IMG/VR virus record: IMGVR_UViG_3300028558_000016 | Span: 214,014-278,013 of that record | DNA from: a virus | DNA length: 64,000 nucleotides | Reading direction: 5' to 3' (one strand) | Notes under the pieces: model-generated | Database searches by the model: none | Told to the model about the DNA's origin: nothing | The model's input: the letters and a program-made list of their open reading frames with translations, nothing else | Program-made: the position numbers and the translations under genes | In this document: positions 10,707-42,931 of the stretch, one piece after another | Layout: every line of letters begins with the position of its first letter | Position numbering within the stretch: position 1 is the first letter of the stretch

Positions 10707-10707
10707 A

Positions 10708-23073: not shown

Positions 23074-23376
23074 ATGGAAGAAAAAGAATTGATAATACTC
23101 ACACATTATGTGAATGTTGGGAGTTCATCTCCAGAAACAGCAAAGCGTATAATGGAAAGAACCGTAGAAATGGTTTTGAGCGAGGATACAGATCCATTGT
23201 ATAGATTTAAACATTTTTTCTATCCTGTGAAAGATGAAGTCAATGCAAGAACAGAATGCATCTATCCTGTAAGACAAGGTCCAATGGGAATTCCTGGAGT
23301 TCCTGGAGATTATTTTGAATCGATTTTGAAAGACCTTGATAATAAGTACGAACAGCTTTTAGAAAAAATAGGATGA
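23074..23376 (+). CDS. hypothetical protein
   Basis: 100 aa. Confidence 0.45.
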   Translation: MEEKELIILTHYVNVGSSSPETAKRIMERTVEMVLSEDTDPLYRFKHFFYPVKDEVNARTECIYPVRQGPMGIPGVPGDYFESILKDLDNKYEQLLEKIG

Positions 23377-24836
23377 TACTCGATATAGAAAAAAGACCTC
23401 ACGAACTTGCATGCAGTTACTTCAATAAAGAAGGAACAATTGAATATGTAAGAATTCCAGTTCCATTGAACGAAAGATTCAATTGGTTAACTTGTAATGA
23501 CACGGATAAGGACAAGGACGTAGAATGGAAAACGTGGGACGAAAATCCTGTAAAGAAGATAATCGTAAAAGATGCAACTAAACTTTCTAAGTATAGATGT
23601 GAAGAGGTTATTTATCAACATACACAAGCAAATCCCGACTCTCCGTTATTGGAGTTTAATGTTCCAAGAAAGTATTTCATAGATATTGAGGTTGAGGTTC
23701 TTGATGGATTTCCAGATCCTGACACAGCACAAAATAAAATAACTGCAATATCAATCGCAGGCGCTGATAGCAAAAGGATTTTTGTTCTTGGTCTTAAACC
23801 ATTAACAGAAGCGCAATGTCACAAGATCGATGCCGACATCAACGGGCACTTTGCCAAGTTCGATGATAAATGGAATTTCCAATACAAGCAGTTTGATTCT
23901 GAGCATGACATGTTGGTTGAATTCTTTCAGAAGATATTACCTAACATGCCTTGCATAAGTGGATGGAATTTTTTCGGATACGATTGGAAGTACCTTCTTA
24001 ACAGAGCTTACAAATACAAGGATGTAAAACCAGAGAGATGTTCTCCGTCGAATACTTTAATAACAAAAAGAAATTCCGGTAATTCAGGAATTCCACAACA
24101 TAAGCTTATTGTGGATTACATGGAAATTTACAAGAAGTGGGATAAGGTTATCAAGGTAAGAGAAAACGATAAGCTTGATTATGTTGCCAAGATGGCAACA
24201 GGATTGGAGAAAATTAAATATCCAGGAAGCTTCACAGAGCTTTATGAAAGAGATTTTCAAAAGTTTATCTTCTATAACGCGGTCGATTCAATTCTGGTTC
24301 ATTACATCGATAAGAAGCTAAACACAATGTTGGCTTATCTTAAATTGGCACATGTTTCAGGAATAGAAATAAAGAAAGCATTCTCTCCTATTTGGATCAT
24401 GGAAGCAATGATGAACAGAAAATTCCTTGACAGAAAACAAGTATTCGTTTATTTGGGTGGAGATGAAGAAGATCAAAAACCATTTGATGGTGCGTATGTA
24501 AAAGAACCTTTGAGAGGATTTCACAATTGGGTTACATGTTATGACTTTGCATCTTTGTATCCTAATACCATGATGCAATTCAACATCAGTCCAGAAACAT
24601 TTGTTGGAAATAACGTTGAGCCTAAAGAAGGTCAGATCAAGGCCGGTGAGCACGTCAATGAATTTGGAAAAACATCTTGGAGAGTTTTCGATAACAGCTC
24701 TGACTCCATAATGAGAGTAATTTTAACAGAGCTTTATGGAAAGAGAAAAGAAACGAAACAAAAGTACCTCTCTATTAATAAAGAGATCGACGCTCTCAGC
24801 AAGTACATTTCAAAAGAACGATTAGAGAAAGCCTAA
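23373..24836 (+). CDS. family B DNA polymerase, N-terminal segment (3'-5' exonuclease + polymerase motif A)
   Basis: Exo I YFIDIEVE, Exo II WNFFGYDWKYL, Exo III YNAVDSIL, motif A YDFASLYPNTM; ends before motif B. Confidence 0.85.
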   Translation: MILDIEKRPHELACSYFNKEGTIEYVRIPVPLNERFNWLTCNDTDKDKDVEWKTWDENPVKKIIVKDATKLSKYRCEEVIYQHTQANPDSPLLEFNVPRKYFIDIEVEVLDGFPDPDTAQNKITAISIAGADSKRIFVLGLKPLTEAQCHKIDADINGHFAKFDDKWNFQYKQFDSEHDMLVEFFQKILPNMPCISGWNFFGYDWKYLLNRAYKYKDVKPERCSPSNTLITKRNSGNSGIPQHKLIVDYMEIYKKWDKVIKVRENDKLDYVAKMATGLEKIKYPGSFTELYERDFQKFIFYNAVDSILVHYIDKKLNTMLAYLKLAHVSGIEIKKAFSPIWIMEAMMNRKFLDRKQVFVYLGGDEEDQKPFDGAYVKEPLRGFHNWVTCYDFASLYPNTMMQFNISPETFVGNNVEPKEGQIKAGEHVNEFGKTSWRVFDNSSDSIMRVILTELYGKRKETKQKYLSINKEIDALSKYISKERLEKA

Positions 24837-24980
24837 TGGATCAAATTAACAAGGAAGAGTTTAAGAACATGGACATTTGGACAGGTACTCAAATTCTGAT
24901 TGACAAAATTAATCACCTCATGCAAGAGGTGGAAAAACTTAAAGAAGAAAACAAACAATTAAAAAACAACACCAACTATT

Positions 24981-25223
24981 ATGAACAATCATTATGTAGC
25001 AGTAGTCGCGTTTGAGACAGAAAAACTCGATGGCGAAGGAAATCCAAAAACCAAGAAATCTAAATTCTTAATCGAAGGGGTGACTCTTTATGATGCACAG
25101 GAGAGCCTGATGGCTTACTTGAAGACAGATTCAAGAGGATGGGACGTTAAATCTATCTCAGAGGCAAAATTCGAGGACATCATCGGACAAAAGAAAACTT
25201 CAAAGGTAGTAAAAATGGATTAA
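24981..25223 (+). CDS. hypothetical protein
   Basis: 80 aa. Confidence 0.4.
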   Translation: MNNHYVAVVAFETEKLDGEGNPKTKKSKFLIEGVTLYDAQESLMAYLKTDSRGWDVKSISEAKFEDIIGQKKTSKVVKMD

Positions 25224-25249
25224 TTTGAATCGAATCGATTATTCCACGA

Positions 25250-25289
25250 AAACCTCCGGAAATTTATTTTTCGGAGGTTTTTTATTTTA
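25250..25289 (+). terminator. rho-independent terminator
   Basis: AACCTCCG ... CGGAGGTT then TTTTTATTTT. Confidence 0.7.
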
Positions 25290-25345
25290 CTTTTTAAATA
25301 TATAGTTCAGACCTTCCTATTATAGGTAACCAAAAATAAGGTCAA

Positions 25346-26194
25346 TTGCTTGTGAAAAATTTTTTAAACGGATTGTTAGATAAAGTTGTTACTAATTTCG
25401 GATTTGACTCAAACCATGATTTCTCCTCTTCCATGATGCATGCTAATTTGCTGTTCTTCACTATACCAGTTGCCTTCATATCTTCCTTTATAGAAAACTA
25501 TTTTGGACTGCAGGCTGTTACCCTTATAGCTTTCGTGACGCTTATTGCACTGGAATTAATAACAGGAATAAGTTCTTCAAGAGTAAGGAAAATTCCATTA
25601 CAATCAAAGAGGTTCAGCAGATTTGGTTTTAAGCTTGTTATTTGGTTCTTGATATTCTTCATCCTTCAAACCATGAAGCTTCAATACAAGGACAATGCCG
25701 TCATAGGTGGAATATACAGTTGGCTGCACAGCAGCATCTTCATATATGTCACGCTTGAGTATTTGATCTCTGTTGTTGAGAACGTATCTGTCATCACGGG
25801 AGATAACAACAACGTCATCCTGCACATGATAAAGGGAACTGTTGGAAAATACATGAAGGTTAAAGAGAATGAGGCGGAAGAGTTCTTCCAAGTAAACGAT
25901 GAACTTTTATGTGTTCTGTCTGAAGAAGGTAAATTCAGAAAGGTAAATAAGGCATGGATGGAAGCACTTGGATACGATGAGAAATACATCCTCAATAAAA
26001 GCTTTAAGGAATTCGTTCATCCAGAGGATTTAAAGAAGACCAAGGAAGAATATGAGAAATTGAAATCATCTGGAACTATTTCAGGATTGATAAACAGGTA
26101 TAAGACAAAAGACGGCAATTACATCTATTTGTCATGGCACGCTAAAGGAGGTAAGAACGGAATGTTCTACTGCACCACAAAGGTCGTAATCTAA
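25346..26194 (+). CDS. holin-like membrane domain (Holin_4_1/TcdE-type) fused to a C-terminal PAS domain
   Basis: TM helices plus ELITGISSSRVRKIPLQSKRFSRFGFKLVIWFLIFF (cf. TcdE DTLLGCLSAIKSRKF..S.GIDGGIRKV). C-terminus LCVLSEEGKFRKVNKAWMEALGYDEKYILNKSFKEFVHPEDL...KTKDGNYIYL is PAS-like. TTG start as in track. Confidence 0.5.
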   Translation: MLVKNFLNGLLDKVVTNFGFDSNHDFSSSMMHANLLFFTIPVAFISSFIENYFGLQAVTLIAFVTLIALELITGISSSRVRKIPLQSKRFSRFGFKLVIWFLIFFILQTMKLQYKDNAVIGGIYSWLHSSIFIYVTLEYLISVVENVSVITGDNNNVILHMIKGTVGKYMKVKENEAEEFFQVNDELLCVLSEEGKFRKVNKAWMEALGYDEKYILNKSFKEFVHPEDLKKTKEEYEKLKSSGTISGLINRYKTKDGNYIYLSWHAKGGKNGMFYCTTKVVI

Positions 26195-26212
26195 TTAACA
26201 AAATCATAATAA

Positions 26213-26246
26213 GAGCCCTCGAAATTTCGAGGGCTTTTTTATTTTT
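26213..26246 (+). terminator. rho-independent terminator
   Basis: Perfect palindrome AGCCCTCGAAA/TTTCGAGGGCT then TTTTTTATTTTT. Confidence 0.8.
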
Positions 26247-26265
26247 ATTATATTGCAATAAGCAA

Positions 26266-26685
26266 ATGATAAAAGATAAAAGTCCATACAACCTTCTACA
26301 AGAAATATATTGGCCTGATGAATGGAAGATACTTATCTGTTGCATGTTTTTGAATCAAACCGGAAGGAAACAAGTAGACGCAGTTAGGGTTTCATTCTTT
26401 AAGAAATGGCCAAACGCAAAGAAGGCAGCAAAAGCAGATCCTGGAGAAATGAAAGAGATGATAAGGTCTCTTGGATTTGTCAACAGAAGAACTATTTCCA
26501 TCATTAAAATGAGCCAGGATTTCATCGAGAAGGATTGGAAGGAACCAAAGGAACTTTATGGAATTGGACAATACGGACAGGACTCTTATGACATATTCGT
26601 GAGAGGAAACATAAGGATAAAAAATCCATCTGATCATGTATTGAAAATGTATTTAAAATGGGCTAAACAATATAAAACAAAATAA
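26266..26685 (+). CDS. HhH-GPD-like (endonuclease III-family-like) small protein
   Basis: W..LICCMFLNQTGRKQV ... LYGIGQYGQDSYDIF helix-hairpin-helix-like; short (139 aa). Confidence 0.35.
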   Translation: MIKDKSPYNLLQEIYWPDEWKILICCMFLNQTGRKQVDAVRVSFFKKWPNAKKAAKADPGEMKEMIRSLGFVNRRTISIIKMSQDFIEKDWKEPKELYGIGQYGQDSYDIFVRGNIRIKNPSDHVLKMYLKWAKQYKTK

Positions 26686-26686
26686 C

Positions 26687-27049
26687 ATGGCAAAGAAGAA
26701 AATCAATCATGATTCCAAAGATTTCGTCACAGCATTAGGCATTGATAAGAATGACATAATAGATGCTGTGGAAACAGGATTTAAAATGCACATGACTGAA
26801 GAAAAACCTTTAAGCGAATGCATACTGGAAGTGGCAAAGAAACTAAAGAAAGGTAGAAAACCTACTGATAATGATCTAAAGATGTTTTCTGCCGGGATGG
26901 TATTATCTACTGCTTTATCAAGCGTTAGGGGTGAACCTCTGGGCGCTTTACTTAAAAGTATGAAAAAGCGCCAGGATAATGACCTGGCATTCACCACGGA
27001 TGACCTTCTAAAGTCTATTAGAGATGAAATGGATGGCCAGAAATCTTAG
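26687..27049 (+). CDS. hypothetical protein
   Basis: 120 aa. Confidence 0.45.
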   Translation: MAKKKINHDSKDFVTALGIDKNDIIDAVETGFKMHMTEEKPLSECILEVAKKLKKGRKPTDNDLKMFSAGMVLSTALSSVRGEPLGALLKSMKKRQDNDLAFTTDDLLKSIRDEMDGQKS

Positions 27050-27137
27050 AAAATTATTTTAACAAATATTTTTTTATTTGAAATTTAGTTCGTACTTTTA
27101 CAGTCCAAATCAGTTTAACAATTAAAAATAAATTATC

Positions 27138-27845
27138 ATGGGATTATTCTTTAAGGATGACGATGAAAAAAAGGAAGTAACGAAAAAGGATGAAAAAAAA
27201 CCTATCGTTAACAACACGGCAAAAAAAATTCCTTTGTCGATTATGTCGATTAACAACAAAAACAACACTACGGACGACTCGGATTTTTCCAGCCAGTTCA
27301 ACGGCACATCTTCCGTCGCAGGTGTGAAAAAACAGGAAATAGTTGAATACTTCGAAAAGATTTTTGAAGAGAACAATATTCCTGGACCTGATTACTTTGA
27401 ATTCAGGAAAGCTTTATTGAAGATGAAAAATGTTGCTCAGGATGATGCAACTAAAATCAAAACAGTTTTCATCGGATTTGAAGCGATGGGATTAACTCCA
27501 CAAAAACTTATAGAGACCACCGGTGTTTACAAAAAATTGTTTGCTGGAAAATTAACCCAATTCAATGGCGAACTTGAAAATGCGTTTAAAGAACAGATCG
27601 GAAAAAAACAAACACAGGTAGATGAGCTTTCAAAAGCCAACATCAAGATCGATGAAGAGATGCGTAAGCTTAATGAGCAAAAAATTGCAAATCAAAAAAC
27701 TGCCGAAAATCTAAACGCGGAAATTCAGAAGAACACTTCTGAGTTAAGCACATCAAAAAATGATTTCCATGCAACATACGATGACCTAATCAAGGAAATT
27801 GATGGTCACGTTGATTTGTTCACTAAACACCTTTTAAATCAATAA
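27138..27845 (+). CDS. coiled-coil protein
   Basis: 235 aa; K/D low-complexity N-part, coiled-coil C-part; CGN arginine codons. Confidence 0.5.
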   Translation: MGLFFKDDDEKKEVTKKDEKKPIVNNTAKKIPLSIMSINNKNNTTDDSDFSSQFNGTSSVAGVKKQEIVEYFEKIFEENNIPGPDYFEFRKALLKMKNVAQDDATKIKTVFIGFEAMGLTPQKLIETTGVYKKLFAGKLTQFNGELENAFKEQIGKKQTQVDELSKANIKIDEEMRKLNEQKIANQKTAENLNAEIQKNTSELSTSKNDFHATYDDLIKEIDGHVDLFTKHLLNQ

Positions 27846-27882
27846 TCACAAATATAAATCATCAACAAAAACCAAATCAAAT

Positions 27883-28908
27883 ATGCAAACAATTGGATCA
27901 GGGGAACCAAAACCCCATTGGATGGAAAAAATAATCCGCTTGGCAATACCAGCAGGATTAATATGGGGAGGTATAAAGCTGTTCAATGCTTTTGCTCCCA
28001 CGTTAATTGAATTCTTCAACAACTTCTGGCACATCGTGCTTGTTGGAGCTCCGGCAGTGTTTCTTACATTGTTCGTTTTACAAAATCCAACATTCTTATG
28101 GATGGGTTATAAAACGCTTTGTCGTAAGATAACTTCCTTCTTTATTAAAATGGATCCGCTGTCATTCATGGACAGATATGTGGATCTTTTGAAAATGAAA
28201 AGAAAAGGCTTGCAAGCAAGCAAAACAAGTCTCAATGCAAATAAGATTCAGCTCGAACGCGATATGGCAGATCTTAAAAAGAACATTGATGAAAAAATGC
28301 GTATGTCCAAGGCCGCAAAAAATTTGGGCGACACCGAAGAAGCAAGTCATCAAGCAGGTATTGCGATGACGGACAAAGGCTCATACGATTTGTATGCACC
28401 AATTCTCCACAAAATGGAAAGCAATCTTGTATTCCTTACTAAGCTGGATGAAAACTGGGGTCGTTCAATAGAAAAGCTTTCTCACACCGTTGAAGCTAAA
28501 CGTAAAGAATTTACCACGTTGAAAAAAATGGCTAAGGCTCTTAACTTCGCAGAAGAGTTTGCCAAAGGAGATACAGAAGCAAATCGCATCTACAAAGAAT
28601 CTGTGTTAGCATTGGAAGAAAAAGTAACACAAAGTCTTGCATACATTGAACAATTTGAAACAGACTCAAAAGGAGTTATGAAATCAATTGATCTTGAAAA
28701 ACAAATGCAAAACGATGAAGGATTAGAAATGCTTGCTCAATACGAACAAAACGGTTCATTGTTCTTGGATGAAGATTATAGCAAGTACAGAATGGAAATT
28801 GACCCTAACAAGGATTTATTTTCCAAAGCAAATGCAAATGCAAAAAATAATTTTGCCGATGCAAGCAAAAACAAAAGCACTGAATTCAGTAGCTTCTTAA
28901 AAAAGTAA
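27883..28908 (+). CDS. membrane-anchored coiled-coil protein
   Basis: 341 aa; two N-terminal TM helices then long coiled coil. Confidence 0.55.
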   Translation: MQTIGSGEPKPHWMEKIIRLAIPAGLIWGGIKLFNAFAPTLIEFFNNFWHIVLVGAPAVFLTLFVLQNPTFLWMGYKTLCRKITSFFIKMDPLSFMDRYVDLLKMKRKGLQASKTSLNANKIQLERDMADLKKNIDEKMRMSKAAKNLGDTEEASHQAGIAMTDKGSYDLYAPILHKMESNLVFLTKLDENWGRSIEKLSHTVEAKRKEFTTLKKMAKALNFAEEFAKGDTEANRIYKESVLALEEKVTQSLAYIEQFETDSKGVMKSIDLEKQMQNDEGLEMLAQYEQNGSLFLDEDYSKYRMEIDPNKDLFSKANANAKNNFADASKNKSTEFSSFLKK

Positions 28909-28970
28909 CAAATCAAAAATAAATAAAAACAAAAACAAGTAGTAATCATCAACAATTAAAAAAACAAATC

Positions 28971-30806
28971 ATGAAAGACAAAATCACGTACTTTTTAAAA
29001 GAATCAACAGTCTTCACTAAATTCTTAGTGGTAGTAGGCTTAGTTGGAATCGTTTGGGGCTTTAAATATGCATGGGAAACATGGATGCCTAAACCAACAG
29101 TTAAAACGGAAGTAATCGCAGTAAACGATCTTCCACCGTTAGCGTACGATAAAAACGCAAACGCAATTTCGCGTCCTTTACCTGACACCATTAACCTTAG
29201 CGAGGTTGGTGCACCGTTCCAATTGAGAGCGGAAATCATGGGATGGAACGCGCAAGCCGGAGTAGCATACGCAAATGGTGGAGCACAAACAATGGCAAAA
29301 TCAATCATGGAAGAACAAGGTGTTCGTCTTAACTTGATCTGTCAAAACAATTGCGGTAAACAAGGTGAGGATGTATTTGCATTCGCACAAGAATATGCTA
29401 AAGGAAGTAAAACATCCGCAAAAGGATGTCACATGATTGCCTGGATGGGTGATGGAGTTCCATCTTACTTGCAGGACTTAAACGAACGCATCAAAAAACA
29501 AATTGGTGAAGAATACATCTTACAAGTGTTCGCAACGTTCGGTGCTTCTTTCGGTGAAGATAAAGCAATCTTCGAAAACGGTTCATTCAAACAAGATCCT
29601 CAAAAATTACGCGGTTCATTATGGTGCGGTGTTATTCGTGATGGAGATTGGAACATCTTAATGAAATATGCAGACATGAACCAAATTCCAGTAAACACAG
29701 ATCTTACAACTTACGATCCTACCGGTATTAATTGGATGCAAGCTCCTGATTTCGATTACACGAAAGCTGCTCAACAATATGTTGCTCGCACAAAAGAAAA
29801 ACGTGAAATCGTTATAAATGGAAAACGTACAGGCCGTGACACTACAGTTGCAGTTAATGGTTGTGTTACATGGTTCCCTGGTGATCAAGTTGCTTTCCAA
29901 GGTCGTGGCGGTGTAACAGTTGCTTCAACTAAAGATTTTGGTGCTCAAATGGCAAACACTTGGTTAGCTCCAAAGAAATGGTTACAAGACAATCGCGCAT
30001 ACGTTGAGAAATTTATTTATGCCGGTTTATTAGGTGGAGATCAAGTTAAATCTCATAGTTCAGCTCTTGCATTTGGTTGCCGTGTTGAAACTGCTATCTA
30101 TGCTGATGCTACAATGAAAGCTTCTGATTGGGAAAATGCATTCAAAGGAATGCAATATACCGATGCAAATGGAAACATGTGCGAAATCGGTGGTTCACGT
30201 GTATTCAACTTATCGGATGCTGCTGAGTATTATGGATTAACAAATGGTGGAACTGACAAATATGCTGCGGTGTATTCTACATTCGGTGATCTTTGTGTTA
30301 AGGCATATCCTAAAGACGTTCCAAAATATCCTGCTTATGAAGAAGTAGTTGATTTAAGCTACATCACAGAAGTTTACACCAAGAACAAAGGGTCAAACAC
30401 TTCAGTTGCTTCAATGCCAACATTCAAAGAAGGTCAAACAATGACATCATCGTTTTCTTCTAAGAAAGTTTCCATTGAATTTGACTTAGGTAGCGCAACA
30501 ATCAAGCCTTCATCTTATGCTACATTACAAGGCATTGCAAACGATTTCATCGTTGCTGAAGGTTTACTTGCAACTATCGAAGGTCATACTGACAACACTG
30601 GAAATGCTGATGCTAACATGAACCTATCTCAACAACGTGCTGATGCCGTTAAGAATTGGTTGATGAATAAAAATCCTAAGTTATTCAAAAACAAAATCAC
30701 TTCGGTTGGTTACGGACAAGATCGTCCAGTTGATCCAAACGCAGACAACAACAATGCTTCTAATAGAGCACACAATCGTCGCGTTGAAATTAAACTTGGC
30801 CACTAA
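28971..30806 (+). CDS. large N-terminally anchored protein with C-terminal OmpA-like peptidoglycan-binding domain (possible substrate-binding component)
   Basis: N-terminal TM/signal anchor. C-terminus IEGHTDNTGNADANMNLSQQRADAVKNWL...GYGQDRPV...NRRVEI is a classic OmpA_C domain. Followed by ABC permease and ATPase. Confidence 0.65.
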   Translation: MKDKITYFLKESTVFTKFLVVVGLVGIVWGFKYAWETWMPKPTVKTEVIAVNDLPPLAYDKNANAISRPLPDTINLSEVGAPFQLRAEIMGWNAQAGVAYANGGAQTMAKSIMEEQGVRLNLICQNNCGKQGEDVFAFAQEYAKGSKTSAKGCHMIAWMGDGVPSYLQDLNERIKKQIGEEYILQVFATFGASFGEDKAIFENGSFKQDPQKLRGSLWCGVIRDGDWNILMKYADMNQIPVNTDLTTYDPTGINWMQAPDFDYTKAAQQYVARTKEKREIVINGKRTGRDTTVAVNGCVTWFPGDQVAFQGRGGVTVASTKDFGAQMANTWLAPKKWLQDNRAYVEKFIYAGLLGGDQVKSHSSALAFGCRVETAIYADATMKASDWENAFKGMQYTDANGNMCEIGGSRVFNLSDAAEYYGLTNGGTDKYAAVYSTFGDLCVKAYPKDVPKYPAYEEVVDLSYITEVYTKNKGSNTSVASMPTFKEGQTMTSSFSSKKVSIEFDLGSATIKPSSYATLQGIANDFIVAEGLLATIEGHTDNTGNADANMNLSQQRADAVKNWLMNKNPKLFKNKITSVGYGQDRPVDPNADNNNASNRAHNRRVEIKLGH

Positions 30807-30813
30807 GAAATAT

Positions 30814-30843
30814 GGAAAAGGGCTTCGGCCCTTTTCTTTTTTC
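30814..30843 (+). terminator. rho-independent terminator
   Basis: GAAAAGGGC-TTCG-GCCCTTTTC then TTTTTT. Confidence 0.75.
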
Positions 30844-30851
30844 CTCTAATC

Positions 30852-31670: not shown

Positions 31671-31672
31671 TT

Positions 31673-32500: not shown

Positions 32501-32502
32501 AC

Positions 32503-33536: not shown

Positions 33537-33539
33537 TGA

Positions 33540-33578: not shown

Positions 33579-33585
33579 CTAAACC

Positions 33586-34125: not shown

Positions 34126-34306
34126 TCCATTTGGAAGATTTCCGCCTGGAAATTTAACTTATTGATTATCAACAAGTTACGCATTATTCCACCAATTTTG
34201 ATGAAATTATTTTTCTATATGGAACATATTTAGTAATTTTACATTGTTAAAGGAAAACAAATAACCTTAAAAATAAACAAAGTAAAAATTAAAAAACAAA
34301 AAAGCC

Positions 34307-34945: not shown

Positions 34946-34966
34946 TCAAAACCATCATCAACAAAA

Positions 34967-35002
34967 TCAGAAGCCCAAATGAAAGTTTGGGCTTCTTTTT
35001 TA
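34967..35002 (+). terminator. rho-independent terminator
   Basis: CAGAAGCCCAAA-TGAAAG-TTTGGGCTTCT then TTTTT. Confidence 0.75.
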
Positions 35003-35016
35003 AATTAAACCCAACC

Positions 35017-35343
35017 ATGAAAAAATTTAAACATCTGAATAGAATTTCCGGAGGATCACTTGGAATGTTCATTCTCAGCATAATTTTCTTATTCATAACA
35101 GTTTCATGCACAAGCGATGAAGCTGGAAATATCTACATAGGTGGAAAACCAAAAGATGCAGAGATCAATCCATTTAAGATCAAATTTCTGTTCACTAAGG
35201 ATTGTTGCTCTGTGTATAGTTTTCAAGACGAAGGAACAACACATTACTTTTGTACAAGACCAGGATCCGTTGAAAGCCAGCATCAAGTTGGAAAAATAAC
35301 CAAACATGAAATAACAGAAACCTTTAATAAAGAAACGCCATGA
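35017..35343 (+). CDS. secreted/lipoprotein-like small protein
   Basis: Track ORF 34987 extends back into the terminator; real start likely ATG 35017 (MKKFKHLNRISGGSLGMFILSIIFLFITVSC). Confidence 0.5.
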   Translation: MKKFKHLNRISGGSLGMFILSIIFLFITVSCTSDEAGNIYIGGKPKDAEINPFKIKFLFTKDCCSVYSFQDEGTTHYFCTRPGSVESQHQVGKITKHEITETFNKETP

Positions 35344-35780
35344 AAAAAATAATAATTTTAATATGTTCATCCTTAGTTGTTGCGACAACACTCTCTATCG
35401 TTTTTTTCTACTATGGACAAAATTCGGCAAAGCCTGAAATGGAAAAAATCCACAAGGAGCTTGATTCAACAAGAATGGAGCTTTCCAATTTTCAGGGTCT
35501 GTCATTGGCCAAAACGAGATACATCGATTCTTTGAGCAAAGTGAATTTGCTTCTATCCAAATACAGAGCATTAACTGATGCAATGACCTACAGGGATTCA
35601 ATTAGAAAGCCATTGGAATTTAGGATAGGAGAGAATGTCAGAATGAAAAGAGACTCATCACGCGTTCTCGTGGATGACATAATAGTTGGTGGAGATAAAT
35701 TCAGCTATTACATTAAATACATCATTGAGCATAAGGATAAATCATTGGAAACTGTTTCACCTGAAAAATTATACAAATGA
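35340..35780 (+). CDS. membrane-anchored protein
   Basis: N-terminal TM helix; ATGA overlap. Confidence 0.5.
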   Translation: MKKIIILICSSLVVATTLSIVFFYYGQNSAKPEMEKIHKELDSTRMELSNFQGLSLAKTRYIDSLSKVNLLLSKYRALTDAMTYRDSIRKPLEFRIGENVRMKRDSSRVLVDDIIVGGDKFSYYIKYIIEHKDKSLETVSPEKLYK

Positions 35781-36235
35781 AGAAGATTTTCTTTTACATA
35801 GAAACGTATGTCTCAAATTTTCCGTGCTATTTAGCTCATGAAATTTCGCACATTATTTTCGTGTTCATATTTTGGATATTTGGGATTAATTCATTTCCAA
35901 AAATGATATGGAAAAGAAAAGCAAGCATGACAATAAACAAAGATCTAACAACTTCAATGCAATCTACATATTTGTTTGTTCAATACACGAGTTATTTTAA
36001 AAATAGAATTCCACTTCTTATTGTAAGTGCTTCTCCAGCATTATTGACTATTTTACTTTTTATATTTTCTCCATGGTACATGTACCTATATTATATCGCT
36101 AACATAAACACGTTGTGGATGTCCGTTGGTGATACAGTGAAATGCCAAGAAATATTCATTGCATATAGAAGAGCCATCAGGATTCGTTGGCATTCTGGGC
36201 ACACCATCGTAGGCAGAATATTTTCTACGAAATAA
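35777..36235 (+). CDS. membrane protein
   Basis: 152 aa, hydrophobic; ATGA overlap. Confidence 0.45.
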   Translation: MKKIFFYIETYVSNFPCYLAHEISHIIFVFIFWIFGINSFPKMIWKRKASMTINKDLTTSMQSTYLFVQYTSYFKNRIPLLIVSASPALLTILLFIFSPWYMYLYYIANINTLWMSVGDTVKCQEIFIAYRRAIRIRWHSGHTIVGRIFSTK

Positions 36236-36372
36236 TTTCCATTCTGTGCACATTCTGTGCATATTTTCCATACATCTTATTGAAATTCAAATGCTTCCAA
36301 TGGAAGCGTTTTTCTTTTATTCTCGAATATATAGTTATAGAAGTGGCACTCTAAAATTAACTACCATGATCG

Positions 36373-36792
36373 ATGTCAAAGAAATCCAAGGTATCAAGGT
36401 CGGTTGCTGCCAAAAGGAAGTTGAAAGATCATCTTAAGACTCACCTTGGCAAGAATTCTTCTTGTTACTTTACTCCAACGGAGTCAGTTGCTTGGTATTG
36501 GTGGAGAGTCATCAATAAGGCCGCGTTCAAAAACAAACTTCCATATCCAAAAGAAATTGTCATTAGGAAATTAAGAGGAGCATGGGGAATTTGTGACGGC
36601 AAAGCAAGGATGGACATGTGTGTCATAACAATATCGTCAGACATTACAAACAGAAAATTATTCATTGCAACAGTTGCGCATGAAATGGTTCATCAATGGC
36701 AATTCCATTACGCAGCAGGAAACCTACACCACGGATCCAATTTCAGAGATTGGGACGTATACTTTAAAAGAAACTTCGGCATCACTTTATGA
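36373..36792 (+). CDS. SprT-like zinc metalloprotease domain protein
   Basis: ATVAHEMVHQWQFHYAAGNLHHGSNF matches SprT HExxH..H..HG..F pattern. Confidence 0.6.
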   Translation: MSKKSKVSRSVAAKRKLKDHLKTHLGKNSSCYFTPTESVAWYWWRVINKAAFKNKLPYPKEIVIRKLRGAWGICDGKARMDMCVITISSDITNRKLFIATVAHEMVHQWQFHYAAGNLHHGSNFRDWDVYFKRNFGITL

Positions 36793-36983
36793 GGATAGAC
36801 ATAGAAAGAGTTAAGGCTCTGAAAGCAGAGATAGACTTGATAAACGGACATCCACTACATGCCATAGAACTATTTGAAAACGGAGAGAAGGTAGAAACTG
36901 ATCCTCAGTTAATAGATGCCTTAGAGCACACCTCCTTAAACAATTACAACATAATCTTATCCAGGTTCTTTATTAAGCCATAA
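36789..36983 (+). CDS. hypothetical protein
   Basis: 64 aa. Confidence 0.35.
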   Translation: MRIDIERVKALKAEIDLINGHPLHAIELFENGEKVETDPQLIDALEHTSLNNYNIILSRFFIKP

Positions 36984-37016
36984 GGAACAATTTCTGATGC
37001 TTATTATAGAATAGGC

Positions 37017-38687
37017 ATGGCAAATATTGATAAGATCACATCGAGCAGCACGGCAGAATACTTCTCAAAGAACCTTCAACAGGTGGGATTCTCATCTCAC
37101 ACTAAAGCAGTTTTGACTGTTGTTAAGGAATCTGTAGATAATTCTCTTGATGCCTGCGAAGAAGCTGGAATACTTCCAAACATCAACGTCATCATCGAAA
37201 AGATGGGACCTGGAACATTAACTGGTTCGGACCAAATTCGTGTTCGAGTGGAAGATAATGGTCCTGGAATAAATCAAGAAGACATTCAAAAAGTTTTCGG
37301 AGAATATCTTTCGTCATCCAAATTCGGAAGAGGTAGATGTTCGAGAGGGCAACAAGGTATAGGAATCTCTGCAGCAACCACATGGGCCCAATTGACTAAT
37401 GCGATGGGCGTAAGAGTAATCACAAAAAGGAAAGAGAATAATAAAGCCATAAAATGCCTCGTTGAAGTTGACATCAAAAATAACAAGGGTGTTATCAAAG
37501 ATAAGGAGTCAATAACATGGAATAAACCTCATGGCACTTGTGTTGAGTTTATATTTGACGGAAGAATACAAGCCAACGGAGAACTTGGTTTAATAAACTA
37601 CCTAACAGGAACCGCACTTGTGAATCCACACATGTCCATGGATTATAAGATCTTTGGATTTGAACAGAAGGTTCTAACCCGAGTAAGCAATGACATGCCG
37701 GAAATTCCAGAGGCAGTCGAACCACATCCACACACTTTAAAACTTGGTGAATTCATAGCGCACTCACACATGTATGGGAAAACTAAAGTAGACCATTGGT
37801 TGAAAAAAGGTTTCTCCAGAATAAACGAAGGCACTCTTAAAGACATTGCTAAGCATGGAGGAAAGGGAATGATGACAAAACAAGTCGATAGCTTAAATGA
37901 TGTCGAACTTAAAACTCTATTTAAAGCAATACAAGATACAAAGCTAATGGCTCCGATGACAAAGAGCGTAATGTCGATTGGAGAGGAAGCATTTTCAAAA
38001 AGCATGAAGAGACTTGGAACAGTAAATTTCTTTTCCATAGTTTCAAGAACTCCTTGCGTATGTGATTTTAAACCAGTTCTTGTGGAAGTTGCAATTGCTC
38101 GTGTGTCAGATGGTGGACCTGAAGATTCATCCGCTCAAGTTCTAAGATTTGCAAACAGAGTTCCTCTTCAGTTTGATAAGTCGTCTTGCGCAATAGTCAA
38201 ATCAATTGAGAGCGTAAATTGGAAAGCATACGGATTAAACCAACCAAAGAATTCTCTTCCATTAGGACCATACATCATAGCAGTTTCAGTTGTTTCTCCT
38301 TTCATCAAGTTTAAAAATGCTTCTAAAGAAACAATCGATGCATCAGATGAATTAGTGGAAGAAATAAGAAAAGCATTAATACAAGCAGGGCAGAGATTAT
38401 CAAAACACATCAAACATGAGGATAAGGCAGCAGAGCTTGAAAAGAAGTTAAGACACATCGAACAGTTCTGTCCAATATTATTAAATGGATTGTGTCATAT
38501 AACAAATGCTTCCAAGACAAGAAGAAATCAAGCAGAAAAAGGTCTTGCCAATCTTCTTGGAAGAGATGCAAAATCGACAAAGCTCGAACTTGATCAAGCA
38601 ACAAAAAGCTTAAACAAGGCTAAAGAAAAAGGAACCATCCAAAATAAAGAAAAAGGATTGGACGAAATAATGGATGATTTAATTTAA
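37017..38687 (+). CDS. type IIB DNA topoisomerase (Topo VI-like) subunit B, GHKL ATPase
   Basis: Bergerat-fold motifs ESVDNSLDA (N box), DNGPGI (G1), GQQGIGISAA (G2). Confidence 0.8.
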   Translation: MANIDKITSSSTAEYFSKNLQQVGFSSHTKAVLTVVKESVDNSLDACEEAGILPNINVIIEKMGPGTLTGSDQIRVRVEDNGPGINQEDIQKVFGEYLSSSKFGRGRCSRGQQGIGISAATTWAQLTNAMGVRVITKRKENNKAIKCLVEVDIKNNKGVIKDKESITWNKPHGTCVEFIFDGRIQANGELGLINYLTGTALVNPHMSMDYKIFGFEQKVLTRVSNDMPEIPEAVEPHPHTLKLGEFIAHSHMYGKTKVDHWLKKGFSRINEGTLKDIAKHGGKGMMTKQVDSLNDVELKTLFKAIQDTKLMAPMTKSVMSIGEEAFSKSMKRLGTVNFFSIVSRTPCVCDFKPVLVEVAIARVSDGGPEDSSAQVLRFANRVPLQFDKSSCAIVKSIESVNWKAYGLNQPKNSLPLGPYIIAVSVVSPFIKFKNASKETIDASDELVEEIRKALIQAGQRLSKHIKHEDKAAELEKKLRHIEQFCPILLNGLCHITNASKTRRNQAEKGLANLLGRDAKSTKLELDQATKSLNKAKEKGTIQNKEKGLDEIMDDLI

Positions 38688-38691
38688 AACA

Positions 38692-39843
38692 ATGGCAAAA
38701 AATAACGACATATCAAAACTAAGCAAGGACATTTGCGAAAGACTTTTGTCAGACTTGGAAAATTCTAAGAGACCAACATTGAAAGCAACAAAGTGTTCTT
38801 TGGACAATGCTGTGTATGATTTCAAAAAGGGATATTTGACGGCTGGACCAAAGAAAGTAATAACGGAATTGAATGTTAGCTCGGTCAAGAAGATGGCAAG
38901 AACTATATTTGTTCTTAAGATCATTTTAAGAAACATAGAGGTTGGAGCGGTCAACACTAAACGTGAGATTTATTACATCTGCAAAGGTGAAATAAAACAT
39001 GATCCTTCGTTGAAACCAATAAACTTTGAAGACCAAAGCGAGTCAGACGAAATAATAGATTTCATTTGTGAGTTATTGGAATGTTACAGAGAAGAATTGA
39101 ATTGCTTCGCCAACGATAGAGGTGGACAAACATATTCGCAAAACCTAATTGTGACCGAAACATTAAATGACGGAACAATTGCAACCATAGATCTTTCCAA
39201 ATTAGGAACAACTCCTTTTCAACCTAAAAACAGACCTCAAAGCTTAAAGCTATCTTCTAACGCAGGAAAGAAGAAACCTGATTTCTGTTTGATAGTTGAG
39301 TCAGAAGGTACTGCCAACACGCTCGTGTCAAACGGTTTCACCAAAAGGAATAATTGCATTTTGTTAGGTGCTCAAGGAGTTCCATCAAATGCAGTAAGAG
39401 GTTGGTGCAAGCTTATACAGGATGATCTTAAAATTCCATTATATTTCTTTGGTGACCTTGACGCATACACCATGCAAAACATTTTCAGAACGTTGAAAGC
39501 CGGATCAGCATCAAGCATTTTAAGGAATGCAGATTTCTCTGCACCCGACGTTAAGTTCCTTGGTGTTCTTCCTAAGGACATAAAGAAATACGATCTCAAT
39601 GATTACCCGGTAAAGACAAGCGATGCTCAGGAAGTAAGAGCTTTGAAGAAAGCTGCTGATGCTTTGAAAAATGATCCTTTCTTTCAAGACAAGAACAACA
39701 AGGGGTTAACTGAGGTGTTGAAATGGTTATTAGTCAATAAGAGACGTTGCGAGCAACAATCTTTCTTCAGTGTTAATCCCAAGGATCCTATAATGCCAGA
39801 GAAGATAATTCTTGACAAGATAAAGAATGGGGATTTCTTATAA
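38692..39843 (+). CDS. type IIB DNA topoisomerase subunit A (Spo11/Topo VI-A-like)
   Basis: Catalytic-Tyr context REIYYICKGE; Toprim acidic residues LIVESEGTANTL and YFFGDLDAYT. Confidence 0.8.
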   Translation: MAKNNDISKLSKDICERLLSDLENSKRPTLKATKCSLDNAVYDFKKGYLTAGPKKVITELNVSSVKKMARTIFVLKIILRNIEVGAVNTKREIYYICKGEIKHDPSLKPINFEDQSESDEIIDFICELLECYREELNCFANDRGGQTYSQNLIVTETLNDGTIATIDLSKLGTTPFQPKNRPQSLKLSSNAGKKKPDFCLIVESEGTANTLVSNGFTKRNNCILLGAQGVPSNAVRGWCKLIQDDLKIPLYFFGDLDAYTMQNIFRTLKAGSASSILRNADFSAPDVKFLGVLPKDIKKYDLNDYPVKTSDAQEVRALKKAADALKNDPFFQDKNNKGLTEVLKWLLVNKRRCEQQSFFSVNPKDPIMPEKIILDKIKNGDFL

Positions 39844-39904
39844 ACCGAAACTTTGCAAAATCTAACTTATAGAATGATTAAACAATCTAATACAGATATA
39901 AACC

Positions 39905-40702
39905 ATGAGCACAACAACGACAAAAACTAAGAAACAAGTTGCAACATTTAAGATCAAATCACCGAACAATTTCATTTCATTCTTAAAACGTTTCTCTCCA
40001 ATAGAGAAATCACTGTTGCTTGAATTAGCAGAAGATCCTAAGACTCCAGGCACCTATGCAATGGTGGCCAAGTCACATACACCAGACAGATCAACAATAA
40101 AATACTCTAAGCTTCCATTAACTGAAGTTCTCGAGGGGACAGTGCCTGCAAAGAACTTAAAGGTTGCTTTGCTCGACATCAATAAGGTAGTAAACGTGTT
40201 TAGACATTTCAACGATGGTGATGAGATATTTCTCGACATCTCTTACGATGATGTTAATGATGATACATTTGCTTTCAGTTTAAAATTCTACACGAAATCA
40301 TTGAAGATTAATTTGACCTGTGCTGATCCAATTCAGTTCACACATATTTCGGCTGAAGCATTAAAGAGAATTGTGAAGTCTGTGGATGATGAAAAGATCC
40401 TCGAATTCCCTTTCCCTAAAGAAGCATTCTCGAAAATAAATTCTCTTTGCGGAATTGATGCTGGGGATGATTTACTCAAAATCAAAGTAACAGCAGAAGG
40501 TGAAGTGTTCTTCACAAGCAAATCATTCGAGTATCACATCCTCGATGTACCTGCTGGAAAAGAAGCTAACATGGCATTCTACAACAGCCAATTCGCTTTC
40601 ATCGACCAAGAGGTTTCTGCTTTTCACTTAAGCCAAAACAAGTTACTCGTTAAATCAACTGATTCAAACACGATGATCATCGTTGGTAGAATCGAAAGAT
40701 AA
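39905..40702 (+). CDS. possible sliding clamp (gp45-like); otherwise hypothetical
   Basis: 265 aa; position among replication genes; loose N-terminal resemblance to T4 gp45 (ATFKIKSPNNFISFLKRFS vs ...TTALLKNFATINSG...). Confidence 0.3.
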   Translation: MSTTTTKTKKQVATFKIKSPNNFISFLKRFSPIEKSLLLELAEDPKTPGTYAMVAKSHTPDRSTIKYSKLPLTEVLEGTVPAKNLKVALLDINKVVNVFRHFNDGDEIFLDISYDDVNDDTFAFSLKFYTKSLKINLTCADPIQFTHISAEALKRIVKSVDDEKILEFPFPKEAFSKINSLCGIDAGDDLLKIKVTAEGEVFFTSKSFEYHILDVPAGKEANMAFYNSQFAFIDQEVSAFHLSQNKLLVKSTDSNTMIIVGRIER

Positions 40703-40707
40703 TCACA

Positions 40708-41163
40708 ATGAAAAAAGATTTGTTTGTCATAACTGGACTTTCCTGTTTTGCAAGCACGCAAGCTGACGCAAAAAAATTAACTCAAGAAATGAGAGTTAAA
40801 TATAGCGGAAGAAACTGCAAGATGACGTTGAAGCGTGTTGTTGACTTAACTGCTAAAAAGATAGAAGAGTCCTCATACTTCATGCATTGCGGAAATACTA
40901 ACTATGATGGTGTTTCGAGTTTTGATCCTTATGTAAAAGGAATCAAACACATTGGCGAAAGCACTAAAGGAATTCCATTATTCATATTGGACTCAGAGCA
41001 GATAATAAAGGGAGTCATTGTTGAAATGGAGTACAATGTGAAGAAAGTTGTTGGTAAAAAAACAGAAGATCATTTAGTTCCTGTTAAGGTAGTAAAAATA
41101 ATAGGATACATGAATGTGGAAAAAGCGCAAAAAACAAAAGATAAAATAACGCCTCTATTTTAG
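40708..41163 (+). CDS. secreted protein
   Basis: Signal peptide MKKDLFVITGLSCFASTQA. Confidence 0.5.
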   Translation: MKKDLFVITGLSCFASTQADAKKLTQEMRVKYSGRNCKMTLKRVVDLTAKKIEESSYFMHCGNTNYDGVSSFDPYVKGIKHIGESTKGIPLFILDSEQIIKGVIVEMEYNVKKVVGKKTEDHLVPVKVVKIIGYMNVEKAQKTKDKITPLF

Positions 41164-41164
41164 T

Positions 41165-41470
41165 ATGGACGAATTTCAAACAAGACAATTTTGGAAAATG
41201 AAACCACAAGACATAAAACCAATAACATACAGACATCTTAAAGAATTATTAAATTCTTTGGATGAGTCACATTTAGATCACCCAGTTAGATGGGGAGGTG
41301 ACAACACCAGTGGATTAATAACTGGAACTTGGCTGGTCGAAGAAGACCAAATAAATCCGTCAGGAGATGGTTGGGAGCCTAAATCAGCTTACAAAGATGA
41401 TCCAGATTTTGATGTGACCGATGAACCTGTTGTTTGTCCGAGCGGATCTTTGATTTTGCTATGTGAGTAA
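41165..41470 (+). CDS. hypothetical protein
   Basis: 101 aa. Confidence 0.45.
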   Translation: MDEFQTRQFWKMKPQDIKPITYRHLKELLNSLDESHLDHPVRWGGDNTSGLITGTWLVEEDQINPSGDGWEPKSAYKDDPDFDVTDEPVVCPSGSLILLCE

Positions 41471-41656
41471 ATGGGAAATTTTATGATACCTGTTTGTTGT
41501 GTTTGTGGAAAATCAGCTCCTCATTGGCATAACAGTGAATGGGAAAAAGCTGGTGGGCTTCAGGATTTTTGTCCTGAACATGTCAAACTCATAAAAACAG
41601 TTCACGGAGAATTTGAAGAATATGTAGTGAATCATTTAGAAAAAGCCGTTCATTGA
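41471..41656 (+). CDS. small Cys/His-rich protein
   Basis: CCVCGKSAPHWH...CPEH; stop lies in terminator loop. Confidence 0.4.
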   Translation: MGNFMIPVCCVCGKSAPHWHNSEWEKAGGLQDFCPEHVKLIKTVHGEFEEYVVNHLEKAVH

Positions 41657-41672
41657 GCGGCTTTTTTTATTT
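41641..41672 (+). terminator. rho-independent terminator
   Basis: AAAAGCCG-TTCATTGAG-CGGCTTTT then TTTATTTT. Confidence 0.65.
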
Positions 41673-41716
41673 TAAACAATTTCGAAACTTCGAATCTCTC
41701 ACAACATAAAACATAC

Positions 41717-42931
41717 ATGAGCTTTCAATATACACAAATAGATCCAGAAACAGCTACCCCGGAAGAAATTAAGGCCGAGATAGACAGGATGAAACAACTT
41801 TCCAATGAGTGGAAAAACGAAGAACAAGCAGTAAAAATCTTAATTAATTCCATGTATGGTGCTCTTGGAAATAAGTGGCTCGTATGTTTCAACCCAGACG
41901 TTGCTGAGACCGTAACACATCAAGGACAAAACTTCTTCATGCTTGCGGAAAAATCTATAAATCATTATTTCCAAAACATGTGGGTTAAGGATACAGAGCT
42001 TCATGCAAAGCTTGGAATTGTTGGAGAAGTAAAACCCGTAAAAAAACCTGTTGTAATTGCTGGAGACACTGATAGCTGTTATGTTTGTTGGGACGAAGTA
42101 GTGGAGTCTTTCGATTGGGAAGCATCCAATGTTGAAGGTGGACCTCATGGACTCATATTGAAAATAAATGAATTCCGATTTGCTAACTTCTTAAACACCG
42201 TGTTTGACAGATATGCAGCAAGAGAGAAAACAAAGAACTATCAAGATTTTGAACTCGAGAATATTTCTGAATCTGCTATATGGCTTGCAAAGAAGAAGTA
42301 CTTATTGAATGTTGTATGGCAAGATGGAATTGACATCAATACTCTTACTCAGATCACATTCAAGGGAGTTGAATTAGCACAATCATCAACTCCTGAATTT
42401 GCGAGAGAGAAATTAAAAGATCTCGTTAAGTTCGTATTCACAAATAAGAAAGGGTTGAAGCTTAACGACATCATCGGTCTATTAAAAAAATATAAAGAAG
42501 AATTCAAGATAGCTGATCCTCAGAAAGTTTCCATGGGTAGAGGAATAACTGATTATAGCAAATACATTTTGAATGACTCAACTAAATTTGAGGTGGCAAG
42601 CAAATGTCCAATTCACGTTAGGGCTGCAGGATATTACAATTATTTGCTTAACCAAAATCCAAAATTAAAAAGCAAGTACGAAGTAATAAAGGCTGGTGAC
42701 AAGATTAAATTCTTCCACGCTAAGACAAAGGGATGGTCCGAGAATTTAGCGAGCAACGAAGAGGATGTATTCGCATTTCTTCCAGGATCTTTTCCTGTGG
42801 AGTTTGCTCCTCCAATTGATTATGATAATCAATTCACTAAAACTATCATTGACCCAATAAATAGGATCACCTCAGCAATGGGACTTCCAGATATTGGCCC
42901 GAATTTATTTATTGCGCATGCGCTTTTCTAA
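41717..42931 (+). CDS. family B DNA polymerase, C-terminal segment (motifs B and C, thumb)
   Basis: Motif B KILINSMYGALG, motif C IAGDTDSCYV; begins ~45 aa before motif B. Confidence 0.85.
   Translation: MSFQYTQIDPETATPEEIKAEIDRMKQLSNEWKNEEQAVKILINSMYGALGNKWLVCFNPDVAETVTHQGQNFFMLAEKSINHYFQNMWVKDTELHAKLGIVGEVKPVKKPVVIAGDTDSCYVCWDEVVESFDWEASNVEGGPHGLILKINEFRFANFLNTVFDRYAAREKTKNYQDFELENISESAIWLAKKKYLLNVVWQDGIDINTLTQITFKGVELAQSSTPEFAREKLKDLVKFVFTNKKGLKLNDIIGLLKKYKEEFKIADPQKVSMGRGITDYSKYILNDSTKFEVASKCPIHVRAAGYYNYLLNQNPKLKSKYEVIKAGDKIKFFHAKTKGWSENLASNEEDVFAFLPGSFPVEFAPPIDYDNQFTKTIIDPINRITSAMGLPDIGPNLFIAHALF

Follow-up and report, generated by a model that had tools for sequence, protein, structure and literature searches.

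A DNA polymerase encoded in two halves

On a 64,000-nucleotide (nt) stretch of viral DNA (positions 214,014 to 278,013 of the IMG/VR record IMGVR_UViG_3300028558_000016, referred to here as the window), the gene of a family-B DNA polymerase (polB) was found as two open reading frames (ORFs) with 16,880 nt between them. These very probably encode the subunits of one functional replicative polymerase of the T4 type, which was split in the distant past at the tip of the fingers domain and would be assembled non-covalently, the split having become fixed in a large clade of jumbo phages and megaphages and further genes having later accumulated between the N-terminal (N) half and the gene for a sliding clamp. 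The two ORFs are as follows:

23373..24836, + strand: PolB N subunit, 487 amino acids (aa) (Pfam, RB69 alignment, motifs)
41717..42931, + strand: PolB C-terminal (C) subunit, 404 aa (Pfam, RB69 alignment, motifs)

Comparison with Pfam showed that the N ORF possesses DNA_pol_B_exo1 (2e-11) and positions 21-138 of the 453 positions of the DNA_pol_B profile (2.8e-16), with positions 134-235 found in the C ORF (3.2e-15). As these profile pieces abut (138|134 of 453), nothing has been lost or duplicated at the break. Among solved structures, the N ORF aligned with residues 113-494 of RB69 gp43 (E 5.7e-35), with 17 further residues past the alignment, and the C ORF with residues 560-818 (about 5e-11), residue 560 being residue 40 of the C ORF. 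The exonuclease motifs Exo I-III were identified in the N ORF as IDIE, NffgYD and YNAVD (RB69 D114/E116, N217/D222 and Y323/D327), along with motif A (DFASLYP) at aa 391. The C ORF was found to carry motif B (KILINSMYG) at aa 40, motif C (DTDS) at aa 117 and the sequence KKKY at aa 192. The features expected of a T4-type gp43, namely Exo I-III, motifs A, B and C and a KKRY-like motif (KKKY), are all present across the two ORFs, with 487 and 404 aa taking the place of the single polypeptide of ~830-900 aa.

The N subunit consists of the N-terminal domain, the 3'-5' exonuclease, a part of the palm that bears motif A, and fingers helix 1 (LYGKRKETK), the counterpart of the RB69 R482/K486 helix, followed by a tail of 25 residues. 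After a 39-aa head, the C subunit has fingers helix 2 bearing motif B, then a palm portion containing motif C and KKKY, then the thumb and a C-terminal tail. The palm is consequently built from both chains, with motif A supplied by N and motif C and KKKY by C. An earlier note on this DNA, made from the letters alone, had placed the exonuclease and motif A on the N ORF and motifs B and C on the C ORF, which the RB69 alignment and motif scan bore out; the clean stop that it had given for the N ORF is a TAA, overlapping the next ATG, while its estimate that the C ORF starts ~45 aa before motif B is corrected here to 39 aa.

Stop-codon recoding is known in Lak phages. Within the window TAA, TGA and TAG all serve as stops, so recoding is not applicable here. 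No second polB-like sequence was identified within the 64-kb window.

Position of the break

The break corresponds to about residues 511/521 of RB69 gp43, at the tip of the fingers domain between its two long antiparallel helices, with the N product carrying the helix that bears the 'RK' residues and the C product carrying motif B, as in the fingertip-split 43A/43B enzymes. The earlier note had proposed one polymerase broken in the fingers region and had suggested an alignment to gp43 as a check; this alignment was run and puts the breakpoint at the fingertip. The spacing from the RK helix to motif B was about 80-90 residues in the split clade, 96 in T4 and 84 in Flavobacterium phage MaF61, whose polymerase is intact, against about 55-59 in the enzymes of the cyanophage type and of P10VF. 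The long fingertip of the clade leaves room for a cut that spares the catalytic residues.

Conservation of the split among relatives

A search of a 5.8-billion-protein collection (E <= 1e-10) returned 1,332 homologues of the N half. The best 120 of these were all half-length, with 118 of them at 458-498 aa and two cut short at 387-390 aa, down to about 44% identity and lying on contigs of up to 474 kb. Relatives' loci were compared under L-numbers (L001 being LR756500 and L021 Lak-A2). In all relatives examined, the frame with the N half ends after 465-525 aa, and a separate frame of 392-475 aa holds the C half; this also applies to Lak-A2 when TAG is read through. The same break was found in all of them, from 86% down to 25% identity; clade alignments showed that N halves end 25-35 residues past the RK helix and that C halves start 35-45 residues before motif B.

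Among GenBank phage records, both halves have their nearest relatives in the uncultured huge phages LR756500-LR756504 and LR745206 (462-735 kb) and in the Lak megaphages of Prevotella, followed by cultured jumbo phages, namely Chryseobacterium phages MA9V-1 and MA9V-2, Sphingomonas phage PAU and Tenacibaculum phage pT24. Two-gene polB can be seen in the GenBank annotations of PAU (gp105/gp110), pT24 (BPT24_165/168) and MA9V-2 (192/196), and the presence of the split in these cultured phages indicates that phages with a split polB are viable. Pairwise identities of the N and C halves were congruent across 11 genomes (Pearson and Mantel r 0.95, permutation p 1e-4); the possibility raised with the original observation, that the halves derive from different polymerases, is thus contradicted. 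A distance-based neighbour-joining bootstrap tree placed all split enzymes, together with that of MaF61, in a clade with 100% support.

One explanation for such halves is that they are decaying remnants, with the genome replicated by another polymerase, either an intact PolB encoded elsewhere or a split Pol III alpha-like enzyme as reported in group 2.2 jumbo phages (PMC7824862). The window covers only 64 kb of ~482 kb, which leaves room for such a gene. However, every catalytic motif is kept in both halves, and lengths are unchanged from 86% to 25% identity in hundreds of lineages. Furthermore, each half was found at a single locus in the complete related genomes, which argues by proxy against a second intact polB here, a point on which the earlier note had made its proposal depend, and the cultured split phages are viable. 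Decay is therefore extremely unlikely.

The distance between the halves varies among relatives as follows:

pT24: 1.2 kb
L009: 1.9 kb
PAU: 2.4 kb
MA9V-2: 3.5 kb, with two hypothetical genes and a TnpB inside
L008 and L007: 4.4 and 5.1 kb
LR756500: 10.4 kb
The window: 16.9 kb
Logan SRR15237813_39511 (subclade relative): 20.4 kb
374-kb contig of sample 3300035183 (subclade relative): 36.0 kb, assuming that the IMG/VR and JGI copies of the contig (both 373,759 bp) share coordinates
LR745206, LR756502, Lak-A2 and LR756504: about 101, 132, 221 and 281 kb, with the halves on opposite strands

Within its lineage, a gap of 17 kb is typical rather than exceptional. It had been described as unusual, which holds against the T4-like literature (2 bp to 3 kb) and does not hold within the clade (1.2 to ~281 kb). 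The synteny comparison proposed at that time places the halves 1.2-5.1 kb apart in compact relatives and 17-36 kb apart in the subclade of the window.

Absence of intein or intron signals at the fingertip, and a second break at motif C

The halves could alternatively be joined after synthesis into one polypeptide by a split intein or by RNA trans-splicing. Split inteins do occur in the same gene in LR756500, L017 and Lak-A2, but these are located at motif C and not at the fingertip. In the window no intein domain was found in either ORF (Pfam), no HN[STC] signature is present in the head of the C ORF, and the N tail extends just 25 aa past the fingers helix motif. No intron was identified in the window by an Rfam gathering scan, the sole match being a transfer-messenger RNA (tmRNA), and no intein was found at the fingertip junction of any relative examined. 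Joining is consequently a most improbable explanation. With neither intein nor intron at the junction, the break is not healed and the enzyme would have to work as two chains.

The C half is interrupted in its turn at motif C, the classical intein site, in LR756500, L017 and Lak-A2 (L001 8784..12184, L017 8029..10957 and L021 4977..7125), so that three pieces encode PolB. From GDTD the upstream ORF continues into intein sequence (recognised by Pfam as Intein_splicing in LR756500), and the downstream ORF begins with a C-intein ending in ...ND-I-L-(V/A)-H-N followed by S-(C/I)-Y, restoring DTDS(C/I)Y. Judging from these sequences, the elements are split inteins, which presumably undergo trans-splicing. 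The C ORF of the window has no interruption at motif C.

Genes encoding DUF7487 proteins were found to adjoin the polymerase halves in some relatives when the junctions were inspected for inteins and homing endonucleases, a check that the earlier note had suggested. In LR756500 a DUF7487 and MTES_1575 nuclease-like gene directly follows the N half, and in a relative from GCA_040384045 DUF7487 genes adjoin both the end of the N half and the start of the C half. A DUF7487 and MTES_1575 nuclease-like gene also lies between the motif-C intein halves of LR756500. The large subunit of ribonucleotide reductase of this phage is likewise in two pieces (L001 16360..20531) with a 376-aa ORF of unknown function between them, the first piece ending in an intein N-part. 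DUF7487 genes, some with the MTES_1575 restriction-endonuclease-like domain, recur beside genes that are broken, namely where PolB N ends, where PolB C starts and within the split intein (L001 20546..22489 and 9718..11421; L028 3505..4659 and 18884..20065; L032 4421..5380; L030 3160..3618). They are candidates for a mobile endonuclease family of huge phages.

Transcription of the two halves

Terminator-like sites in the region numbered 15, against 2.7 expected from shuffled sequences. At least three terminators lie between the halves, placing N and C in different transcription units. These include:

25248..25282, + strand: intrinsic terminator closing the N-half unit (15-pair stem and T-run)
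26211..26238, + strand: second intrinsic terminator (terminator scan)
41637..41669, + strand: intrinsic terminator just upstream of the C half (dG -18.4 kcal/mol, z -6.3)

None of 200 shuffles was as stable as the last of these. Its position right in front of the C half implies a separate transcription start for that half within the ~47 nt that follow (41670..41716).

The separation of the transcription units could mean that the halves have partly independent roles, with the N half acting as a free proofreading exonuclease or with expression at different times so that assembly regulates replication. This would also accord with the megaphages in which the halves lie on opposite strands and 100-281 kb apart, and with phiKZ-like phages, which carry exonuclease and polymerase as separate proteins (PMC3201878). 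However, the N half contains motif A and one fingers helix, which would be functionless without the C half, and the halves have co-evolved tightly, which speaks for a single obligate complex. Independent roles are therefore considered very unlikely.

The predicted sliding clamp gene between the halves

The following features were identified just upstream of the C half:

39905..40702, + strand: sliding clamp, 265 aa (predicted fold, Foldseek)
40708..41656, + strand: three small ORFs of 151, 101 and 61 aa between the clamp and the C half (no Pfam or PHROG family; the 61-aa ORF has Cys/His-rich motifs)

ORF 39905..40702 had no match in Pfam, PHROG or PDB sequences, and tblastn against phage records gave LR756500 as the sole match. 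An AlphaFold2 model built from 35 homologues (pLDDT 93.9) was compared with the PDB using Foldseek, giving 397 matches at E <= 0.001, the best 50 of which were structures of PCNA or beta clamps (probability 1.00, TM 0.65-0.70). On the basis of this model the ORF is predicted to be a PCNA/gp45-type sliding clamp with a two-domain clamp fold. A profile of the clamp also matched PAU gp109, MA9V2_194 and pT24_167, and PAU gp109 has independently been called a gp45-like clamp in a report that also describes clamp-loader genes in this phage (PMC4889955).

Searches with the profile located a clamp gene directly before the C half in L001, L007-L009, L015-L017 and L029, and farther upstream in L030 (by a few genes) and L028 (by about 9 kb). 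Around the C half of LR756504 and Lak-A2 no match was found within 5 kb; there the gene may lie elsewhere or be too divergent. In compact genomes the clamp gene sits between the halves of the polymerase. The C subunit of the window ends in '...NLFIAHALF', following a hydrophobic-aromatic pattern (...NLxxxxxLF) that is kept in most relatives with a complete C half, including Lak-A2 and LR756504, and is not kept in MA9V-2, PAU, pT24 and L015. With a clamp gene nearby, this tail is a putative clamp-binding peptide.

In MaF61, with its intact PolB, a clamp homologue lies 2.6 kb upstream of the whole gene, and in the T4-like order 45-44-62-regA-43 the clamp is likewise upstream of the whole polymerase gene. 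The order N half-clamp-C half is a shared derived one, which supports a common origin of the split in the PAU-, pT24- and MA9V-like phages and the megaphages. To account for a clamp inside the gene, we infer that tandem duplication of part of a clamp-polB unit followed by complementary loss, or else a translocation, may fit better than simple insertion of an endonuclease.

Content and age of the interval

The interval between the halves (24837..41716) contains 27 ORFs of at least 59 aa, all on the + strand, a count that corrects the 'about 30 genes' of the earlier note. The genes that it had listed there were found again, the holin-PAS protein, ABC permease/ATPase and Topo VI B/A with Pfam and the H1-like protein from its translation. 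The main features are:

25346..39843, + strand: gene block between the N half and the clamp (Pfam, translation, synteny of relatives)
25346..26194, + strand: fusion of a holin family 4_1 domain and a PAS sensor domain (Pfam)
34307..34945, + strand: H1-like protein, 212 aa, with a long AKKPAKK-type Lys/Ala/Pro-rich region (translation; no Pfam match)
37017..38687, + strand: Topo VI B (Pfam)
38692..39843, + strand: Topo VI A (Pfam)

The block encodes, besides these, an HhH-GPD glycosylase, an OmpA-domain protein, an ABC permease and ATPase, a UPF0114 protein, a SprT-like protein and proteins of unknown function.

The earlier note had left two origins for the gap, an old split followed by gene accretion or a large insertion. 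The gap as a single recent insertion, a mobile island that entered a gene pair adjacent until recently, could explain why gene content between the halves varies among relatives (Topo VI here and type IIA topoisomerase in L029 and L030, with a differing spacing in L015) and why DUF7487/restriction-endonuclease-type mobile genes and TnpB are found at or between the halves in some of them. However, the genes downstream of the N half match those of the window in L031, whose N half is 75% identical. L029 has the order ABC transporter ... SprT ... topoisomerase ... clamp ... C half ... RecA and L030 the order topoisomerase ... clamp ... C half ... RecA, with C halves about 57-66% identical to that of the window; together with L034, these relatives at 47-75% identity are partly syntenic with the block. 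The GC content of the interval is an ordinary 0.35-0.38, with one coding strand throughout, and no integrase, transposase or endonuclease was recognised in it with Pfam or motif regular expressions. Synteny in relatives, uniform GC and the absence of mobile genes indicate that the 17-kb spacer is old within the subclade and was built stepwise. A single recent insertion is thus unlikely, and of the two origins it is the old split with later accretion that agrees with the synteny, the GC content and the shared break.

Identical gene order on both sides was found in an independent assembly from another sequencing run, so that the order is no assembly artefact. A weak HNH-like string on the minus strand of the interval, returned by the regular expressions for GIY-YIG, LAGLIDADG and HNH, was judged to be a chance occurrence.

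Proposed model and its weighing

According to the reading that we favour, of one polymerase working as two subunits, the polymerase gene would have been cut long ago at the tip of the fingers, with the cut then fixed in the clade. The N and C subunits would be transcribed from separate units and translated separately, and the chains would assemble non-covalently, with an antiparallel hairpin formed by the two fingers helices and with both chains contributing to the complete palm sheet. As a holoenzyme the polymerase may ride on the phage's sliding clamp, whose gene lies just upstream of the C half, with the C-terminal tail docking on the clamp. The 16.9-kb gap would be the outcome of genes being gained, replaced and rearranged between the N half and the clamp rather than of one insertion, and the same process may have led to gaps of 20-36 kb in sister lineages and of 100-281 kb, with the halves on opposite strands, in complete megaphage genomes.

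Some observations weigh against this reading or limit it. Physical assembly and activity of the two chains of this enzyme are what we infer by analogy with 43A/43B of phage 25 and with split Pfu polymerase. The window covers 64 kb of a ~482-kb genome, and a second intact polB is accordingly excluded by proxy only. The intact polymerase of MaF61 nests inside the split clade, although with a weak support of 66%; as its position is not fixed, a single origin of the split is likely but not proven, and two splits or a re-fusion are possible. No common promoter motif was identified upstream of the two units among 23 intergenic regions inspected, so that co-regulation of the halves is not supported; sites resembling sigma-70 promoters were rarer than in shuffled sequences (10 vs 17.1 and 14 vs 18.0).

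A broader proposal is that a very large clade, including PAU-like, pT24-like and MA9V phages, Lak phages and huge phages of 460-735 kb, has an obligate two-subunit PolB split at the fingertip as its ancestral and universal state, with N half-clamp-C half as the ancestral layout. Because the clamp lies upstream of the whole gene in MaF61 and T4, the split may have come about through rearrangement or partial tandem duplication of the clamp-polB unit with complementary loss, and not by simple homing-endonuclease insertion, after which the halves would have drifted up to ~281 kb apart and onto opposite strands. We regard this broader proposal as about equally apt to prove right or wrong. If this is true, no other split replicative polymerase known in a virus would be as dispersed as this one, of which no description was found in the literature searched.

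PolB is a standard marker for phage taxonomy, phylogeny and checks of genome completeness, and in this abundant clade it is present as two half-length genes, sometimes hundreds of kb apart. Pipelines may call such a PolB truncated, count it twice or build trees from one half. The clade also suggests that a replicative polymerase can be maintained for a very long time as two unlinked genes, and it offers hundreds of natural split sites and termini for studies of assembly or for split-polymerase engineering. The graded gaps, from 1 kb to 281 kb, may be read as a record of giant-phage genome growth by accretion and rearrangement around a fixed landmark. Furthermore, the presence in some relatives of a motif-C break, presumably trans-spliced, and a non-spliced fingertip break in one gene makes two routes of coping with a broken gene directly comparable.

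Neighbouring genes

Other features near the two halves are listed below:

21961..22410, + strand: dUTPase (Pfam dUTPase 1e-17, PHROG dUTPase 5e-38)
22428..23072, + strand: ClpP-like protease, operon partner of the N half (Pfam CLP_protease 2.3e-31)
23074..23376, + strand: 100-aa ORF whose stop overlaps the start of the N half, operon partner of the N half (ORF list)
24836..25223, + strand: two small ORFs of 59 and 80 aa directly after the N half (ORF list)
44263..45543, + strand: UvsX/RecA-like recombinase downstream of the C half (PHROG UvsX-like 8e-52, Pfam RecA 2.6e-14)

A dUTPase gene was also found upstream of the N half in L001, L004, L006-L011, L013 and L031-L034, and just downstream of it in L003. 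The order ClpP-like protease, 100-aa ORF and N half is repeated in L031, L032 and L034, and the 80-aa ORF, which is DUF4494-like, also follows the N half in relatives. Large proteins of ~800 aa with a major-vault-protein shoulder domain (MVP_shoulder) are encoded just upstream of the dUTPase-PolB-N block in L033 (1..1344) and L034 (1..1811). Both L031 and the independent assembly L027 also have the fusion of holin and PAS domains downstream of the N half. The H1-like protein resembles histone H1 or Hc1, and genes annotated as Hc1/HC2 lie nearby in relatives.

The Topo VI B and A genes (37017..39843) fill the slot between the SprT-like gene and the clamp. This slot is occupied in L029 (5323..9249) and L030 (4204..9386) by T4-like type IIA topoisomerase subunits (HATPase_c+Toprim and DNA_topoisoIV). 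The occurrence of Topo VI (type IIB) and type IIA enzymes in the same slot suggests that one phage topoisomerase was displaced by another, non-orthologous one.

Downstream of the C half, a UvsX/RecA-like gene was also identified in L001, L007-L009, L015-L017, L029 and L030, an arrangement that can be likened to gp43-UvsX in the gene order of cyanophage S-PM2. In L016 (12063..16265) and L009 (10450..12937) this gene is in two pieces, 3.1 kb and 1.3 kb apart respectively, which suggests another inserted element.

Elsewhere in the window, a full-length tmRNA gene was identified at 9284..9686 (Rfam RF00023, 101 bits, E 2.6e-38). A 672-aa protein (496..2514) with RNA-ligase and cytidylyltransferase-like domains (Pfam) is kept in several relatives, its gene lying within 7 kb of the N half in L001, L003 and L005.

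Comparison with known split polymerases

A gp43 split at the fingertip is in itself known. Bicistronic gp43 (43A/43B) occurs in the T4-related Aeromonas and Acinetobacter phages 25, 31, 44RR, 65 and 133 (Petrov et al. 2006, 2010, as relayed in PMC3061061 and PMC2988022), with the cistrons 2 bp to 3 kb apart (PMC3061061), and 43A and 43B of Aeromonas phage 25 co-purify and are active (PMC2988022). The likeness to the window lies in a T4-type family-B enzyme broken at the fingertip between the fingers helices, with no intein and two polypeptides that would have to associate. In those phages, however, the cistrons are adjacent and the trait is sporadic among close relatives, whereas in the window 16.9 kb, 27 ORFs and at least three terminators lie between the halves, which belong to separate transcription units. 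What differs in the clade of the window is that the split is fixed, that the clamp is nested between the halves and that dispersal in relatives is far greater, with gaps of up to ~281 kb and halves on opposite strands.

Pfu polymerase cut at the fingertip and rebuilt from separately purified fragments behaves like the wild type (PMC3061061). This engineered enzyme shares the structural cut site and the reconstitution of full activity from separate fragments, but is artificial, archaeal and derived from an adjacent bicistronic construct.

In published work on jumbo phages, the PolB of this group has been termed 'classic', with an additional split Pol III alpha-like enzyme in group 2.2 (Iyer et al. 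2021, PMC7824862), and the Jug-phage paper describes local splitting by endonuclease insertions only. No published description of a dispersed split PolB in megaphages, huge phages or PAU was found in the open-access literature searched.

Separate genes for pieces of one PolB are likewise a feature of the motif-C splits of LR756500, L017 and Lak-A2 and of Nanoarchaeum equitans, whose PolB is a split-intein polymerase. In these cases the junctions carry intein halves and point to protein trans-splicing, in contrast to the junction of the window, which is without an intein.

The PolB of Methanothermobacter thermautotrophicus consists of two polypeptides from unlinked genes 85 kb apart that form an active complex (Kelman et al. 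1999, as relayed in PMC3061061). It resembles the case described here as a family-B polymerase from two unlinked genes, but is archaeal and broken in the palm, about 83 residues C-terminal to the fingertip position, which makes it an independent split site. The polymerase of the window thus shares its break site with the split gp43 of T4-related phages and its unlinked genes with the PolB of M. thermautotrophicus.

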